Virus record (IMG/VR): IMGVR_UViG_2563366824_000007
Direction: 5' to 3' (one strand)
DNA from: a virus
Lineage: Duplodnaviria > Heunggongvirae > Uroviricota > Caudoviricetes
DNA length: 43,405 nucleotides
Part shown: positions 1,245-39,974 of the stretch, one piece after another
Layout of the letters: the number at the start of each line of letters is the position of its first letter
How positions within the stretch are numbered: the first letter of the stretch is position 1
The notes under the pieces: model-generated
Told to the model about the DNA's origin: nothing
The model's database searches: none
What the model saw: the letters and a program-made list of their open reading frames with translations, nothing else
Program-made: the position numbers and the translations under genes

Positions 1245-2402
1245 ATGCTCACCGTTAAGCAGATTGAAGCAGCAAAGCCGAAAGAAAAACCATACCGCCT
1301 TCTCGATGGTAATGGCCTGTACCTTTATGTCCCTGTATCCGGGAAAAAGGTATGGCAGCTTCGCTACAAGATTGACGGTAAGGAGAAAATACTGACCGTC
1401 GGAAAATATCCGCTTATGACTTTGCAAGAGGCAAGGGATAAAGCATGGACTGCGAGGAAAGACATCTCGGTTGGCATCGATCCGGTAAAGGCGAAAAAGG
1501 CTTCGTCTAACAACAATTCCTTTAGTGCGATTTACAAGGAATGGTACGAGCATAAGAGGCAAGTCTGGTCAGCCGCCTATGCGACTGAACTTGCAAAAAT
1601 GTTTGATGACGACATTTTACCTATCATCGGCGGCCTTGAAATTCAGGATATTGAGCCGATGCAACTGCTGGAAGTAATCCGCAGATTTGAAGATCGCGGG
1701 GCAATGGAGCGAGCCAACAAAGCACGCAGAAGATGCGGCGAGGTTTTCCGTTACGCTATTGTCACCGGAAGGGCTAAATATAACCCGGCACCTGACCTTG
1801 CTGACGCCATGAAGGGATACCGCAAGAAGAACTTCCCGTTTTTACCTGCCGACCAGATCCCGGCATTCAACAAAGCACTTGCAACATTTTCAGGAAGTAT
1901 CGTATCTCTCATTGCGACCAAAGTTTTACGCTACACAGCACTAAGAACAAAAGAGCTTCGTTCCATGCAATGGAAGAACGTCGATTTTGAAAACAGGATT
2001 ATCACCATCGAGGCCAGTGTGATGAAGGGACGCAAGATTCATGTGGTTCCGATGTCGGACCAGGTTGTTGAACTTCTCACTACGCTAAGCTCCATCACTA
2101 AACCAGTATCAGAGTTTGTTTTTGCCGGGCGCAACGATAAGAAGAAGTCAATCTGCGAGAACGCGGTATTGCTTGTGATCAAACAAATCGGCTATGAGGG
2201 TCTGGAAAGCGGTCACGGATTCAGGCATGAATTCAGCACAATTATGAACGAGCACGAATGGCCTGCTGACGCTATTGAAGTGCAACTGGCACATGCCAAC
2301 GGCGGATCTGTGCGTGGTATTTACAACCATGCTCAGTATCTCGATAAGCGCAGAGAAATGATGCAGTGGTGGGCGGACTGGCTTGATGAAAAGGTGGAGT
2401 GA
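1245..2402 (+). CDS. intS: P4-type tyrosine integrase (IntS-like)
   Basis: N-terminal arm-binding region and C-terminal catalytic motifs (HGFRH ... Y); sits directly 3' of the tRNA; track ORF begins at GTG 1209, in-frame ATG at 1245 preferred. Confidence 0.9.
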   Translation: MLTVKQIEAAKPKEKPYRLLDGNGLYLYVPVSGKKVWQLRYKIDGKEKILTVGKYPLMTLQEARDKAWTARKDISVGIDPVKAKKASSNNNSFSAIYKEWYEHKRQVWSAAYATELAKMFDDDILPIIGGLEIQDIEPMQLLEVIRRFEDRGAMERANKARRRCGEVFRYAIVTGRAKYNPAPDLADAMKGYRKKNFPFLPADQIPAFNKALATFSGSIVSLIATKVLRYTALRTKELRSMQWKNVDFENRIITIEASVMKGRKIHVVPMSDQVVELLTTLSSITKPVSEFVFAGRNDKKKSICENAVLLVIKQIGYEGLESGHGFRHEFSTIMNEHEWPADAIEVQLAHANGGSVRGIYNHAQYLDKRREMMQWWADWLDEKVE

Positions 2403-2551
2403 CCCACCTTAAATACCGAAGAGCACAAAGCCTTGCAATCCAGTGCAAAGCTTTGCGTACCAGAGTTTTTCCTCATCAACTACCGCAAGTATCGATCGAT
2501 TGAGACTTGGATGATAGACTTCATGCCTTTCAGAACTCATTGATTAAATAA

Positions 2552-2914
2552 ATGTTAAATATATTTGCAAGGTACACCTCGATTGGTGTGCTGAACACAC
2601 TTATACACTGGGTGGTTTTTGGTGTATGTATCTATGCCGCGCATACCAATCAGGCTCTGGCAAACTTCGCAGGTTTCGTTGTGGCTGTGAGTTTTAGCTT
2701 CTTCGCGAATGCAAAATTCACATTCAAAGCATCAACTACAACGATGCGCTACATGTTATATGTCGGGTTCATGGGAACACTGAGTGCTACTGTTGGATGG
2801 GCTGCTGATAGATGCGCACTTCCTCCGATGATAACTCTTGTCACCTTCTCCGCCATCAGCCTGGTGTGCGGTTTCGTCTATTCAAAGTTCATTGTCTTTA
2901 GGGATGCGAAATGA
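2552..2914 (+). CDS. gtrA: GtrA-family bactoprenol-linked glucose translocase (flippase)
   Basis: 120-aa small 4-TM protein, first gene of a three-gene operon next to int; overlaps the next gene by 4 nt. Confidence 0.85.
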
Positions 2915-3828
2915 AAATTTCTTTAGTCGTTCCGGTCTTTAACGAAGAGGCCACGATACCTATTTTTTATAAAACCGTGCGCGAATTTGAAGGGCTTCAG
3001 CAGCATGAAGTCGAGATAGTCTTCATAAACGATGGCAGCAAAGACGCTACAGAATCAATTATCAACGAGCTTGCTGTTGCCGACCCGCTTGTGGTTTCGC
3101 TGTCGTTCACACGTAACTTCGGCAAAGAACCTGCCCTGTTCGCAGGTCTGGACCATGCTACCGGGGAGGCAATTATCCCGATTGACGTTGATCTGCAAGA
3201 CCCTATCGAAGTTATTCCTCACTTGATAGAGAAATGGCAGGCCGGTGCAGATATGGTTCTGGCTAAACGCTCTGACCGCTCCACTGACAGCAGGCTGAAG
3301 CGTAAATCTGCTGAGTGGTTCTATAAACTTCATAACAAAATCAGCACCCCTCAGATAGAAGAGAATGTTGGCGACTTCCGGCTCATGTCTCGCGAAGTAG
3401 TGGAAAACATTAAGCTCATGCCAGAACGAAACCTGTTTATGAAGGGTGTGCTGAGCTGGGTTGGTGGTCGAACCGAAGTCGTAGAATATGCGCGAGCAGA
3501 ACGCGTTGCAGGAAGCACAAAGTTCAATGGATGGAAGCTCTGGAACTTGGCGCTGGAAGGGATCACTAGCTTCTCAACATTCCCGCTGCGCATGTGGACC
3601 TATATTGGGTTATTTATTGCATGTATATCATTTACATACGGTTCATGGATGATAATTGATAAATTAATTTTTGGTAATAATGTACCTGGATACCCTTCAA
3701 TTCTTGTATCAATATTATTTCTTGGCGGCATCCAGTTAATTGGTATTGGAGTGCTAGGTGAGTACATAGGGCGTATCTACGTTGAGGTTAAGCAGCGTCC
3801 AAAGTATATATTAAAGGATAATAAATAA
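2911..3828 (+). CDS. gtrB: GtrB-family bactoprenol glucosyltransferase (GT2)
   Basis: 305 aa with GT2-like N-terminal region (VVPVFNEE ... DGSKD ... DVDLQDP) and two C-terminal TM helices; stop overlaps the gtrC ATG. Confidence 0.9.
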
Positions 3829-17096: not shown

Positions 17097-18913
<1,817 letters not shown>

Positions 18914-36129: not shown

Positions 36130-36734
36130 GCGTTAGTTTCTCCACAGTCACGACACGCCACGGCGCCCGGAGCTGCACACTCGCGGGCGTCATTACTTTC
36201 TGAAATGCAAAAGATTTTGTAGACCAGTGCTGCATGCTCCTGCAGCTTCGAAATTGAGAGATACAGCTCGTCGTTAATTGCTGTCTTCTCATGCGGTTCC
36301 ACCACACCGTCTTCGATTGCCGAACGAATCTGTCTGGAATAACTGCCAATCTGTTCAATGACTTCCAGCAGGCGCTGGTTAATATCCGCGTTGTCCACAT
36401 CCTCGACGTCAGGAAGAGACACAAAGACGCCATTTGCAGACTGCGCCACAGCGTCAGCAATGAAGTGAGTTCCACCAGCACGTTGCAAAATCATTGCCCA
36501 TCCCAGCGGGAAAATCTGATCGCCATCGGCACGAAGGCGGTTAAATAATGCGTTTTCTGTTACATCCAGCCAGTCAGCTGCTTCAGCGTAACCACCCGGC
36601 AACGCTGCGATAGTTTTTCTGACAGCTTTCACGTACCACTCAGGCTGTTTTTCTACTTTCCAGTGATGCTTACCCACGGTTAGCCTCATCGTTCTGTGGT
36701 TTCTGTTAATCGATTTATCCATTAGATTTTTCAT
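36126..36734 (-). CDS. Early regulatory-region protein at the cII/YdaT position (function uncertain)
   Basis: Track ORF 36126..36791 starts at GTG; in-frame ATGs at 36734 and 36722; no clear ribosome-binding site; follows the cro-like gene. Confidence 0.45.
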
Positions 36735-36915
36735 AAAGCTCAGGTTTAAATGGCAACCGTCCGCAAGTTCTATATGCAGCTTCTGCTGCACGTCCTTTTG
36801 GAATTAACTGGCCCGGACGGTTTCGCCACTGATAAACGGCTTCAGTTGTTATGCCGAAAAAAGCAGCAACTTTCTCAATACTGCCGAAGTAGCTTTCGAT
36901 ATCGTCAGTTGTCAT
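36715..36915 (-). CDS. Cro-like HTH regulator (YdaS/Cro family)
   Basis: 66 aa with HTH (VAAFFGITTEAVYQWRNR); GGAGGG ribosome-binding site; divergent from cI. Confidence 0.75.
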   Translation of the reverse strand: MTTDDIESYFGSIEKVAAFFGITTEAVYQWRNRPGQLIPKGRAAEAAYRTCGRLPFKPELYEKSNG

Positions 36916-37012: not shown

Positions 37013-37639
37013 ATGGAAACGGTTGGTCAGCGTATAAAAGCTCTGAGAAGAGTTACCGGAACGTCCCAGAAAGAATTGGGTAAATTTTGTGGAGTAAGCG
37101 ACGTTGCTGTGGGGTACTGGGAGAAAGACATCAATACTCCTGGTGGGGAGGCACTTTCGAAATTAGCGAAGTTCTTCAATACGTCAATAGATTACATTCT
37201 TTATGGTGCTGAGTTTGAAGGCAAACTCGTCACAAACATGCGCAGAGTTCCTGTAATATCGTGGGTTCAGGCTGGGCAGTTTACTGAGTGCAGGGCAGCA
37301 GAAGTGTTTAGTGAAGTGGACAAGTGGGTAGATACATCATTAAAGATTGGTGATAACTCATTTGCATTAGAGGTTAAAGGTGACTCCATGACTAACCCTA
37401 ATGGCCTCCCAACAATACCAGAAGGCGCAACAGTGATTGTAGATCCAGATGCAGAACCTCGTCATGGAAAAATAGTCATCGCTCGACTTGATGGAACAAA
37501 CGAAGCTACAGTAAAAAAATTAGTCATCGATGGCCCTCAAAAGTTTTTAGTGCCATTAAATCCTCGGTATCCCAACATCCCTATCAATGGTAATTGCCTT
37601 ATCATTGGTGTAGTCAAAGGAGTTCAATACGAACTCTAA
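37013..37639 (+). CDS. CI-like repressor (HTH plus S24 LexA-type autopeptidase domain)
   Basis: 208 aa; N-terminal HTH (QKELGKFCGVSDVAVGYWE), C-terminal peptidase region with GDSM serine motif and a downstream Lys. Confidence 0.88.
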   Translation: METVGQRIKALRRVTGTSQKELGKFCGVSDVAVGYWEKDINTPGGEALSKLAKFFNTSIDYILYGAEFEGKLVTNMRRVPVISWVQAGQFTECRAAEVFSEVDKWVDTSLKIGDNSFALEVKGDSMTNPNGLPTIPEGATVIVDPDAEPRHGKIVIARLDGTNEATVKKLVIDGPQKFLVPLNPRYPNIPINGNCLIIGVVKGVQYEL

Positions 37640-37653
37640 GACCTCTCTTCTCT

Positions 37654-37721
37654 AACTAAGGCACCGAACTAAGAAAAGTTTGGTGTTTTCTCTTGCCATA
37701 ATAACTAAGTTAAGTTAGATT
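37654..37721 (+). promoter_or_regulatory. OL/PL-like operator-promoter downstream of cI
   Basis: Three further AACTAAG repeats (37654, 37667, 37703) and a rightward TTGCCA -17- TAGATT promoter (37693..37721) with half-sites in the spacer. Confidence 0.5.
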
Positions 37722-37845
37722 TTATATCAAAGATAACGAACAGGCAGGACGCCCACGAAGTAGCCGCCTGGGGCATATGACGTCCAGGATGATTCGTTGA
37801 GTCATGTTGTGCCACCAGGCACTCATGTTAAAGCAGGTGTATGAA

Positions 37846-38121
37846 ATGAAAGTCCAGATTTTAAACAATAACTGTGAAGTCGTTTGGTCATACGACATAG
37901 CCGCCCCTGTAGATCAGAGCGGCGATAGCTGGACCAATGGGAAACATCAGATTATGGCTGGAGTTGTGTTCTCTTTACGCCGTGCTTTGGAACAGGCTGA
38001 AGTATTTCCATCAGACCCTGAATGGAAATGGCCTTTTTCTATTTGTCCAAATTCGGAGAGCACATTTCAGAAAATTGGTCAGAAAGTCGCACTCGAAGAG
38101 CATCAGCCAACTGTTTCCTGA
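37846..38121 (+). CDS. Hypothetical protein, first ORF downstream of cI
   Basis: 91-aa ORF from ATG 37846 with AGGTG ribosome-binding site (track start 37804 lacks one); AT-rich; no recognised family. Confidence 0.5.
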   Translation: MKVQILNNNCEVVWSYDIAAPVDQSGDSWTNGKHQIMAGVVFSLRRALEQAEVFPSDPEWKWPFSICPNSESTFQKIGQKVALEEHQPTVS

Positions 38122-38284
38122 TTTTTTCAGGTAACTCGTCGGCATCGCAGAAACAACAACGCTCGATCATGTTGAAAGCCGATTCGTAGAACTGTTTCTG
38201 CTGAGTGTCGCTGAGACAGGAAAAGAGCGACGTTACGATGATTTTATTAATTGCATTATCAAGTTCTTTTTCATCAAAAGTCAT
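38039..38284 (-). CDS. Hypothetical acidic protein, convergent with and overlapping the previous ORF
   Basis: 81-aa ORF with ATG and AAGGA ribosome-binding site; 3' end overlaps the plus-strand ORF by 83 nt; Cys pair CCFC; AT-rich. Confidence 0.45.
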   Translation of the reverse strand: MTFDEKELDNAINKIIVTSLFSCLSDTQQKQFYESAFNMIERCCFCDADELPEKIRKQLADALRVRLSDQFSEMCSPNLDK

Positions 38285-38539
38285 TTGATTTTCCTTTTAT
38301 GTATACGGGCTTAAAAGGATACCACCGAGCCTGAAGTGGTGAAAAGACAGGCACATAACAGCTAAGTATTTTCAACCAAAGAGAATCCTTAGCGTTGTGG
38401 TGAATGCGGCTCAGCGCACGCGGGTTAAGGTTGAGGCTGACAGTCGACCTTCTGTGGATACCCACCCGCCTGGTGTGCAACCTTCGCCAGGCACCGGGAG
38501 GCACCCGGCACCACAACTTTATGCTGTGTGTAGTCTTGG

Positions 38540-38584
38540 CGGTACCAGCTTATACCCTTGCTTCCGGCTGGTACCGTCCTTTTT
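38540..38584 (+). terminator. Intrinsic terminator in the early leader (tL1-like)
   Basis: 10-bp GC-rich stem CGGTACCAGC / GCTGGTACCG with 17-nt loop, followed by CC-TTTTT. Confidence 0.6.
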
Positions 38585-38673
38585 ACAAAACAGAGAAGAG
38601 CATCACCGGACGACGGGCTCATAACCCAATCCATCCGGGCGGCAGTCACCGCAGGTGTTCTTCTCTGTTTTGT
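38585..38673 (+). other. Long perfect inverted repeat (15-19 bp stem, about 50-nt spacer) upstream of yfdP
   Basis: ACAAAACAGAGAAGA at 38585..38599 pairs perfectly with TCTTCTCTGTTTTGT at 38659..38673; the stem extends with G-U pairs. Confidence 0.6.
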
Positions 38674-38721
38674 GGAGAAACTAACCGACCTTGCAGGGTC
38701 GATATGATGAGGAGCAGCAAA

Positions 38722-39084
38722 ATGGCTAGCGAACGCAGTACTGATGTGCAGGCATTTATCGGGGAGCTGGACGGCGGCGTATTTGAAACCAAAATCGGCG
38801 CAGTTCTCAGTGAAGTCGCTTCCGGTGTGATGAACACGAAAACCAAAGGTAAGGTCTCGCTCAACCTGGAAATCGAACCGTTTGATGAGAACCGAGTGAA
38901 AATCAAACACAAACTCTCATATGTTCGCCCGACTAACCGCGGGAAAATTTCCGAAGAAGACACCACCGAAACGCCGATGTATGTCAATCGCGGTGGTCGC
39001 CTGACTATTCTGCAGGAAGACCAGGGACAGTTACTGACTCTTGCCGGTGAACCTGACGGAAAACTCCGCGCAGCAGGTCGTTAA
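38722..39084 (+). CDS. yfdP: YfdP-like early protein
   Basis: 120 aa from ATG 38722 with GAGGAG ribosome-binding site; the track ORF's 5' extension from 38404 is Arg/Cys-rich and covers the structured leader. Confidence 0.7.
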   Translation: MASERSTDVQAFIGELDGGVFETKIGAVLSEVASGVMNTKTKGKVSLNLEIEPFDENRVKIKHKLSYVRPTNRGKISEEDTTETPMYVNRGGRLTILQEDQGQLLTLAGEPDGKLRAAGR

Positions 39085-39149
39085 TATCGTTTTTAATTAA
39101 CTGATTATTTATCTCATCACTGAATATCTTTATATAGTGAGGACTTATT

Positions 39150-39974
39150 ATGTCTCAGAACTTAGACGCAACCGCAATTAATCAAATCCATGCCCTTATT
39201 TCTGCTCAGGGTGTTAATGAAATTATCAGTAATATTGGTGCCGATGCTGTGGCATTGCCTGAGAATTTCCGCATTCATGATCTGGAAAAATTTAATTTAA
39301 ATCGCTTCCGTTTCCGTGGTGCGCTTTCCACTGCCAGCATCGATGACTTTACCCGTTATTCTAAAGATCTTGCAGATGAAGGCACCCGCTGCTTTATCGA
39401 TGCTGATAATATGCGTGCCGTCAGTGTGCTTAACCTGGGTACTATTGATGAACCAGGTCACGCAGATAACACCGCCACACTCAAACTGAAAAAGACAGCA
39501 CCGTTCTCTGCTCTGTTGTCTGTTAACGGCGAGCGTAACTCCCAGAAGTCACTGGCAGAATGGATTGAAGACTGGGCCGACTATCTTGTGGGCTTTGATG
39601 CTAATGGTGACGCTATTCAGGCAACAAAAGCGGCTGCGGCTGTCCGTAAAATCACGATTGAAGCAAACCAGACCGCTGATTTTGAAGATAATGACTTCAG
39701 CGGCAAACGCTCCCTGATGGAGTCTGTCGAAGCGAAGACCAAAGACATTATGCCAGTGGCATTTGAATTTAAATGCGTTCCGTTTGAAGGTCTGAAAGAA
39801 CGTCCGTTTAAATTACGCCTCAGTATTATCACTGGCGATCGTCCTGTACTGGTTCTGCGCATTATTCAGCTGGAGGCGGTGCAGGAAGAAATGGCTAAAG
39901 AATTTCGTGATCTGCTTGTTGAGAAATTCAAGGACAGCAAAGTAGAAACCTTTATTGGTACTTTCACCGCCTGA
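39150..39974 (+). CDS. yfdQ: YfdQ-like protein (DUF2303)
   Basis: 274 aa, the size of K-12 YfdQ; GTGAGGA ribosome-binding site. Confidence 0.75.

Follow-up and report, generated by a model that had tools for sequence, protein, structure and literature searches.

The 437-bp element at positions 38285-38721 (+ strand) of the 43,405-nucleotide (nt) phage DNA analyzed here (IMG/VR record IMGVR_UViG_2563366824_000007; hereafter, the window) is the distal part of an untranslated leader, about 1 kb long, of the early-left (PL) operon of a lambdoid prophage, and it encodes RNA, not protein. The window is an SfV-like prophage at argW, and the element lies between the cI side and yfdP. Three RNA modules make up its cassette: a pseudoknotted STnc100/PasD-class domain (module A), a conserved single-stranded stretch followed by an intrinsic terminator (module B), and a long hairpin (module C). 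The cassette is a new variant among known prophage small RNAs rather than a new kind of element, and a hybrid of DicF and STnc100. By analogy, it probably works like dicBF of the Qin prophage, with release of a DicF-like small RNA upon induction, a reading in which our confidence is slightly better than even. A first-pass annotation of this DNA had described the 437 bp as a leader that may control the yfdP-T operon. The leader is longer, starting at a PL-like promoter at 37693-37721, and the cassette is not confined to yfdP, since it also precedes kil, RdgC-like and other first operon genes. The promoter and the parts of the cassette are as follows.

37693-37721, + strand: PL-like promoter, TTGCCA-17 nt-TAGATT, overlapped by an AACTAAG repeat
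38394-38517, + strand: module A, pseudoknotted STnc100/PasD-class domain of the promoter-less subtype
38394-38402 with 38509-38517, + strand: helix P1 of module A
38427-38433 with 38478-38484, + strand: pseudoknot of module A, AAGGUUG with CAACCUU
38469-38475 with 38485-38491, + strand: helix P4 of module A
38494-38508, + strand: helix P5 of module A, CCGGG-AGGCA-CCCGG
38518-38537, + strand: 5' part of module B, conserved single-stranded, seed-like stretch TTTATGCTGTGTGTAGTCTT
38538-38584, + strand: 3' part of module B, intrinsic terminator (13-bp stem, 15-nt loop, U5)
38585-38673, + strand: module C, long hairpin whose 20-bp stem leads into a three-way junction; putative RNase III target of read-through transcripts
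38614-38627, + strand: CGGGCTCATAACCC at the tip of module C, the same as positions 29-42 of Escherichia coli initiator tRNA (metZ)

The site at 37693-37721 is the only promoter-like + strand site in 37500-39300. AACTAAG occurs six times in the window, and five of the copies flank cI (36926, 36975, 37654, 37667 and 37703). This pattern fits right and left operators (OR and OL), and on that basis we take the site as PL and as the likely start of the transcript that contains the element. The region has a pronounced propensity to fold on the + strand (-184.1 kcal/mol, z = -7.4; - strand, z = -3.8). It was initially described as the longest non-coding stretch of the prophage, in agreement with the RefSeq annotation of a prophage matching the 437 bp at 100%: over the 40 kb listed there, the 600-nt gap before yfdP is the largest, followed by one of 351 nt. 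The left border at 38285 rests on an unverified minus-strand open reading frame (ORF).

Module A is a promoter-less member of the STnc100/PasD class

A permissive search of 701 bases with the Rfam STnc100 model (RF02076) aligned 38372-38587 to the entire model (1-206/206) with 42.4 bits and E = 8.6e-08. Module A is present in one copy in the window. A pattern scan for the invariant CACCGGGARGCACCCGGCACC found it in at least 120 viral contigs, from which 80 unique copies were extracted; P1, P4, P5 and the pseudoknot are common to the 80 family sequences, and the window displays this full-length architecture. P1 covaries across the 80 unique sequences, with position 3 being A-U in 35 and G-C in 37 and position 2 being C-G in 29, U-A in 29 and U-G in 10. 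The loop preceding the invariant motif pairs with a stretch approximately 30-38 nt from the 5' end, generating the pseudoknot. Among 62 unique sequences, 85% can form a pseudoknot of at least 6 bp with their own loop as opposed to 22% with foreign loops, and 41 different complementary pairs occur. Other phages illustrate the exchange: the pseudoknot is AAGGCUG with CAGCCUU in Cronobacter phage phiES15 and UGGUUAU with AUAACCA in phage P1. The MAFFT alignment of module A is out of register internally; covariation was counted with position-anchored scripts.

PasD of enteropathogenic E. coli is an abundant, Hfq-dependent small RNA detected by Northern blot and by RIL-seq (PMC8550237), and a preprint links it to STnc100 (bioRxiv 10.64898/2026.05.13.724894). 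The window and STnc100/PasD share the closing helix, hairpins, tail and terminator as well as the invariant CACCGGGAGGCACCCGGCACC. They differ in the first hairpin, where the window has GAAUGCGGCUCAGCGCACGCGG in place of GAAUCCCCCUGUGCGGAGGGG of STnc100. They also differ in expression signals. Many STnc100-type copies of the Rfam type have a sigma-70 promoter (TTGAC.-17 nt-TA...T) that ends about 7 nt before P1, and the domain is followed by the tail and terminator. The window lacks such a promoter: the + strand from 37722 to 38721 has no promoter-like site, so none adjoins module A. Finally, STnc100/PasD reside in the late region downstream of Q or stx (PMC12370729; bioRxiv 10.64898/2026.05.13.724894), whereas the window copy is in the early-left leader next to cI.

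The window thus represents a second, promoter-less subtype (GAAUGCGGCUNAGCGCACGCGG) found within leaders, with further members in ST64B, phiES15, mEp460 and P1-like phages. In the last of these, the subtype lies in the ban operon between upl and tciA (phage P1, L003, 1502-1625; RCS47, L007, 2502-2626). The ban operon of P1-like phages also has tRNA genes and a region annotated as dicF-like. Several STnc100-type domains can occupy one contig, as in L020 (three within 1 kb, ~2330-3272), L071 (4464-8511), L027 and L089. Boundaries of BLAST matches suggested that mEp460-type phages have modules B and C without A; this was rejected upon finding a diverged A domain in mEp460.

Module B combines a seed-like stretch with a terminator

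The stretch at 38518-38537 is aligned by the Rfam DicF model (RF00039) to the 5' region of DicF; the match to the window is weak (38525-38579, 19.7 bits, E = 0.1). In ST64B, phiES15, phiNP and numerous viral contigs, TGCTGTGTGTAGTCTT recurs before terminator stems that differ from one another. From its sequence, the start of the stretch is a possible RNase E site.

The terminator reported in the first-pass annotation at 38540-38584 is borne out. Its 10-nt arms (38540-38549 and 38567-38576) are 100% complementary and extend to a full stem of 13 bp with 9 G-C pairs (38538-38550 and 38566-38578), followed by C and TTTTT (38580-38584). The structure is therefore a GC-rich hairpin with an immediate U-tract on the transcribed strand, as in an intrinsic terminator. 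Folded alone it reaches -22.4 kcal/mol (z = -4.9 versus shuffles), and in a fold of 38394-38584 its pair probability is 0.999. A consensus scan limited to loops of 3-8 nt did not list it because of the 15-nt loop. At the same position, relatives carry GC-rich stems of other sequence, each followed by a U-tract. The long terminator loops of the window (38551-38565) and of relatives share YCCC(U/G)U (ACCCUUG, ACCCGUG, UCCCGUU); DicF has CUCCGUG at the place of this motif.

Module C is a conserved long hairpin with an initiator-tRNA-like tip

The 25-nt arms of module C (38585-38609 and 38649-38673) are 84% complementary and separated by 39 nt. Their outer 15 nt (38585-38599 and 38659-38673) form the perfect inverted repeat noted in the first-pass annotation, with an intervening distance of 59 nt instead of the approximately 50 nt given there. 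The module folds to -45.5 kcal/mol (z = -8.3) with 20 consecutive predicted stem pairs, i.e. a near-perfect duplex of at least 20 bp, or about two helical turns, the size expected of an RNase III substrate and in keeping with the initial proposal of such a duplex. Lack of conservation of the repeat in related prophages was one part of what would have refuted the first-pass reading. The repeat is conserved: module C stands directly 3' of the U-tract in nearly all relatives, and RNAalifold of 14 diverse copies yielded 32 consensus pairs, 7 of which have compensatory changes. Alignment columns 10 and 107, for example, are G-C in seven sequences and C-G in seven. No Rfam family matched module C in the whole window, in a permissive search of the region or in related loci.

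As RNA, the tip of module C (CGGGCUCAUAACCC) comprises 14 nt with three G-C pairs and a CUCAUAA loop, the core of an anticodon arm. It is the longest substring that the window has in common with metZ and the only shared stretch of 11 nt or more. ARAGORN found no tRNA gene there (its only call in the window is tRNA-Arg at 1009-1083). Copies in the module C alignment were fetched by exact pattern, making the invariance of the tip partly a matter of construction; variants one base off, found by BLAST, occur in ST64B (CATTACCC), a Klebsiella phage (AATCC) and locus L027 (extra A). A similar element is found in Klebsiella phage RCIP0034 (L004, ~2500-2580), after tRNA-Asn and tRNA-Arg and downstream of Q.

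The cassette resembles the dicF region of Qin

In the Qin prophage of E. coli K-12 the order is dicA, ydfABC, a 3' end like that of a module A, dicF, an A-type domain and dicB. The DicF model scores 76.7 bits on dicF of MG1655. The A-type domain lies between dicF and dicB (L237, 2947-3087) and matches STnc100 at 34.1 bits, which is sub-threshold; the sequence 5' of dicF ends like an A domain of the mEp460 type. Since dicF is flanked by A-type domains, DicF corresponds to module B in a cassette of like kind. The likeness extends to location, with both cassettes downstream of a cI-like repressor gene (dicA in Qin), in an untranslated early-left part and ahead of early genes. In the window, the order of cI, PL, leader, terminator (38584) and yfdP reproduces this operon place. 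DicF and module B are also built alike: in each, single-stranded 5' sequence is followed by a GGCGGTA(C/T)CAG stem that encloses a long loop and ends in a U-tail, and each is accompanied by STnc100-type domains, on both sides of DicF and as module A in the window.

Three forms of DicF have been described: one with an RNase E-generated 5' end, a terminated form of 53 nt and a form of 72 nt released by RNase III from full-length dicBF RNA (PMC5069750, citing Faubladier et al. 1990). In both cassettes a stem of at least 20 bp follows the U-tract. The closing stem of the Qin A-type domain is 21 bp long, begins 8 nt past the U-tract of dicF and includes nt 72 of the DicF transcript; it thereby coincides with the published RNase III end (PMC5069750). 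The stems are of different origin, being module C in the window and an extended P1 of the A-type domain in Qin. Moreover, the single-stranded stretches differ (UGCUGUGUGUAGUCUU in the window, UUCUGGUGACGUUU in DicF), and targets may differ as a consequence.

Proposed mechanism

We propose that loss of the cI-like repressor upon induction would allow PL to fire, and that a share of PL transcripts would end at the terminator (38584). RNase E prefers to cut between RN and WUU, a rule that the junction of AAC and UUUAUG fits. Cleavage at this junction, just 3' of module A, would yield a small RNA of about 65 nt (38518-38584), while an uncleaved terminated product would keep module A at its 5' end, as STnc100 does. 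The small RNA is predicted to base pair with host or phage mRNAs, with Hfq. In read-through RNA, RNase III would cut module C and so part the small RNA from the yfdP-yfdQ-yfdR-yfdS-yfdT-torI message, leaving the latter with a short structured 5' end. The first-pass annotation had entertained a processing element among its options, an idea that fits the RNase III precedent of DicF and Qin by analogy. Of its other options, a small RNA with its own terminator is favored by homology, while antiterminator pairing was not found: at best, the terminator 5' arm pairs with upstream sequence at -14.2 kcal/mol, where shuffles average -13.9 (p = 0.40) and the terminator arms themselves reach -23.8.

Several observations weigh against a DicF-like small RNA. 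Comparison with covariance models, suggested at first annotation, produced the full-length STnc100 alignment described above, yet both scores fall below the gathering thresholds (42.4 bits versus 47 for STnc100; 19.7 bits versus 48 for DicF). A 15-nt loop is atypical of a terminator. With no promoter adjoining module A, the RNA is expected to be silent in the lysogen, unlike PasD. For ftsZ (-70..+45), the duplex energy does not improve on that of shuffled sequences (fraction 0.83), in a weak test where the DicF control itself gave 0.18. Lastly, parts of modules A and C are invariant, which suggests that they do more than base pair; the model does not account for this further role.

If the proposal is right, a small RNA should appear specifically upon induction and carry a seed that differs from that of DicF. 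DicF and STnc100/PasD, which have been treated separately, appear here as neighboring modules of one early-operon leader cassette, in K-12 dicBF as well. The published RNase III end of DicF would be explicable, in a testable manner, as a cut within the lengthened closing stem of the structured domain that comes next. The pseudoknot, as part of an STnc100-type fold, and the initiator-tRNA-like tip offer entry points to the organization of temperate-phage leaders. Our literature search found no description of the cassette, the pseudoknot or the adjacency of DicF and STnc100, older dicF literature being outside that search.

Alternative explanations

In one alternative, modules A and C do not merely carry an antisense tail. 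Module A could be a recognition domain that marks leaders for a protein, RNA polymerase or a ligand, and module C a cis-regulator or decoy mimicking initiator tRNA. We consider this doubtful as things stand. The module A fold is spread over lambdoid phages, P1-like phages and the dicB leader of K-12, and were it a recognition domain, DicF and STnc100/PasD would be parts of one modular RNA system. Module C might then bind readers of initiator tRNA, such as the 30S P site with initiation factor 3, methionyl-tRNA synthetase or a VapC-type nuclease, and would control the first early-left gene or protect host initiator tRNA.

A second, likewise unlikely, explanation holds that the leader is solely a cis-acting insulator or attenuator devoid of a trans-acting RNA. 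The terminator would stop polymerases that had not been modified at the start of PL transcription, a nut- or put-like element would license read-through, and modules A and C would be structural parts of the leader. The candidate element lies close to PL and is given here for context only.

37735-37798, + strand: conserved 5' element of the PL transcript, AACGAACAGGCAGGACGCCC...GGATGATTCGTT

This element is unchanged in the window, SfV, ST64B and phiNP despite differing operators, and its two stems covary. Its 27-mer is present in at least 120 viral contigs, with 99 unique contexts among the matches listed, mostly about 10 nt past a sigma-70-like promoter and in combination with many operator or immunity types. 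Such a placement is that of nutL and putL and argues for an insulator, and the element may be a nut-like site. Relatives with the operators of the window (L127, L219) have a hairpin and a perfect boxA, GCTCTTTAACAA, after the 5' element. Also in favor, no N-like gene is annotated, a Q-family antiterminator being the only one in the RefSeq annotation, and the leaders of ST64B and mEp460 are 600-800 nt long and contain terminators but no convincing ORF. The 5' element has no Rfam family.

Opposing this view, GCTCTT is absent from 37700-38730 of the window and the leader has neither boxA nor boxB. The phage mEp460 has the cassette but lacks the 5' element. Locus L302 has a sequence like HK022 putL after the 5' element and separate from it, indicating that the element itself is probably not put. 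Furthermore, the single-stranded stretch before the terminator is conserved, and an insulator needs none. Elsewhere, a boxA-like UGCUCU(Y)NYCG directly precedes helix P1 in many promoter-less copies of module A (phage P1, RCS47, L075, L086, L096, mEp460 [L236, 2846-2857] and phiNP). A boxA before module A was dropped as a candidate in the window, which has AAUCCUUAGCG at this place and no GCTCTT in the leader.

Two antitermination systems offer comparison. The lambda N leader contains nutL and a stem cut by RNase III before the N start. Like the window, it places a long structured stem after the early-left promoter and ahead of the first gene, in a transcript controlled by termination; unlike it, the window has no annotated N gene, boxA or boxB, and a terminator and small-RNA unit precede the stem. 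HK022 putL shares with the window a structured PL-leader RNA shortly upstream of a U-rich stop, HK022-like repressors and the lack of N. The put RNA of HK022 consists of two stems at positions 3-72 of the PL transcript. Module C, in contrast, lies 3' of the terminator and therefore cannot suppress it. In the HK022 PL/PR region, no shared motif and no sequence or fold homology to module A or C was found, and 37735-37798 resembles putL only in two short words, ACGAAC and CAGGAUGA, with folds that are not comparable. Homology to HK022 put was not established for any module.

It is improbable that module A is a riboswitch-like domain, sensing a ligand or protein and thereby setting termination at 38584 or translation of the next gene. 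The idea is invited by its aptamer-like build, in which a helix closes the domain, a pseudoknot forms and bases of the junction and loop are invariant, and by its position: it precedes the terminator here, and a Shine-Dalgarno sequence follows it directly in Qin (dicB), phage P1 (tciA) and locus L121. However, the antiterminator helix that should compete with the terminator is missing (p = 0.40; terminator pair probability, 0.999), terminator stems vary among relatives while the spacer is conserved, and the downstream genes are mutually unrelated. In addition, members of the subtype that has its own promoter accumulate as small RNAs that are abundant and bound by Hfq (PMC8550237).

A decayed protein-coding gene or a DNA-level site (a cruciform or protein-binding palindrome) is hardly credible: RefSeq does list a frameshifted pseudo coding sequence, hypothetical, at the place that corresponds to 38397-38707, a mechanically derived ORF of 226 amino acids (aa) runs into yfdP, and inverted repeats are equally symmetric in DNA, but the Arg/Cys-rich ORFs across the region match no Pfam or PHROG family and homologues differ by 1-nt indels (both as the first-pass verdict of an ORF that is not protein-like would have it), the fold signal is stronger on the + strand, and among the compensatory changes of the conserved helices are G-U pairs, mismatched both on the opposite strand and in DNA. 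Recognition of the stretch as RNA corrects its annotation as a hypothetical or frameshifted protein across E. coli genomes.

Distribution of the cassette

Of 5426 complete E. coli genomes, 2786 match the sequence at least partly, 1814 of them with at least 80% of it. Shigella phage SfV matches the 437 bp at 98.2% and is collinear with the window around the element. In SfV, ST64B, phiES15, phiNP and mEp460, the cassette sits between a gene for a cI-like repressor and the first gene of the early-left operon. At gathering threshold, Rfam identified only isrC and tRNA in the whole window and neither DicF nor STnc100 in twelve related loci, rendering the cassette invisible to standard annotation. 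Homology to the K-12 prophage CPS-53 begins at about 38702 and covers only the last ~20 nt before yfdP; with the cassette missing there and unrelated sequence next to yfdO in its place, K-12 CPS-53 was rejected as a proxy for use of public transcriptomes.

Other features of the leader and its surroundings

Upstream of module A and downstream of module C, the leader has additional small elements.

38321-38340, + strand: small leader hairpin CCAC-CGAGCCTGAA-GTGG, kept in relatives
38361-38393, + strand: hairpin GCTAAGTATTTTC / GAGAATCCTTAGC with 13-nt arms, 85% complementary, directly 5' of module A
38674-38681, + strand: conserved GGAGAAAC
38686-38701, + strand: hairpin with a TGCAG loop
38710-38715, + strand: Shine-Dalgarno sequence GAGGAG before the yfdP ATG at 38722

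The hairpin at 38321-38340 recurs with substitutions 5' of module A in phiES15 and locus L219. On the minus strand a scan called it terminator-like, but conservation does not extend to the T-run. ST64B has another hairpin (TAAGAG/CTCTTA) at the equivalent of 38361-38393. Following module C, relatives maintain the order of GGAGAAAC, a hairpin with a (U)GCAG loop and a Shine-Dalgarno sequence, the first gene being yfdP/sb37-like, RdgC-like or other.

The genes that surround the leader are listed below.

36715-36915, - strand: cro
37013-37639, + strand: cI-like LexA-family repressor
37846-38121, + strand: orf33, convergent with the 81-aa ORF
38039-38284, - strand: 81-aa ORF with a good Shine-Dalgarno sequence, setting the left border of the element
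3' of the element, from the ATG at 38722, + strand: yfdP, yfdQ, yfdR, yfdS, yfdT and torI (xis)

The orf33 and 81-aa ORFs overlap by 83 nt; both have a Shine-Dalgarno sequence, and they belong to separate PHROG families. They were seen only in four near-identical phages, meaning that conservation cannot judge either. Relatives carry another minus-strand gene at this location, and the pair looks like an accessory module inserted into the PL leader.

Outside the early-left region, the tRNA gene at 1009-1083 is tRNA-Arg(CCU). Positions 17402-17524 (+ strand) are a full-length Rfam match to isrC (150.2 bits), an Hfq-binding RNA first described in Salmonella (Rfam).

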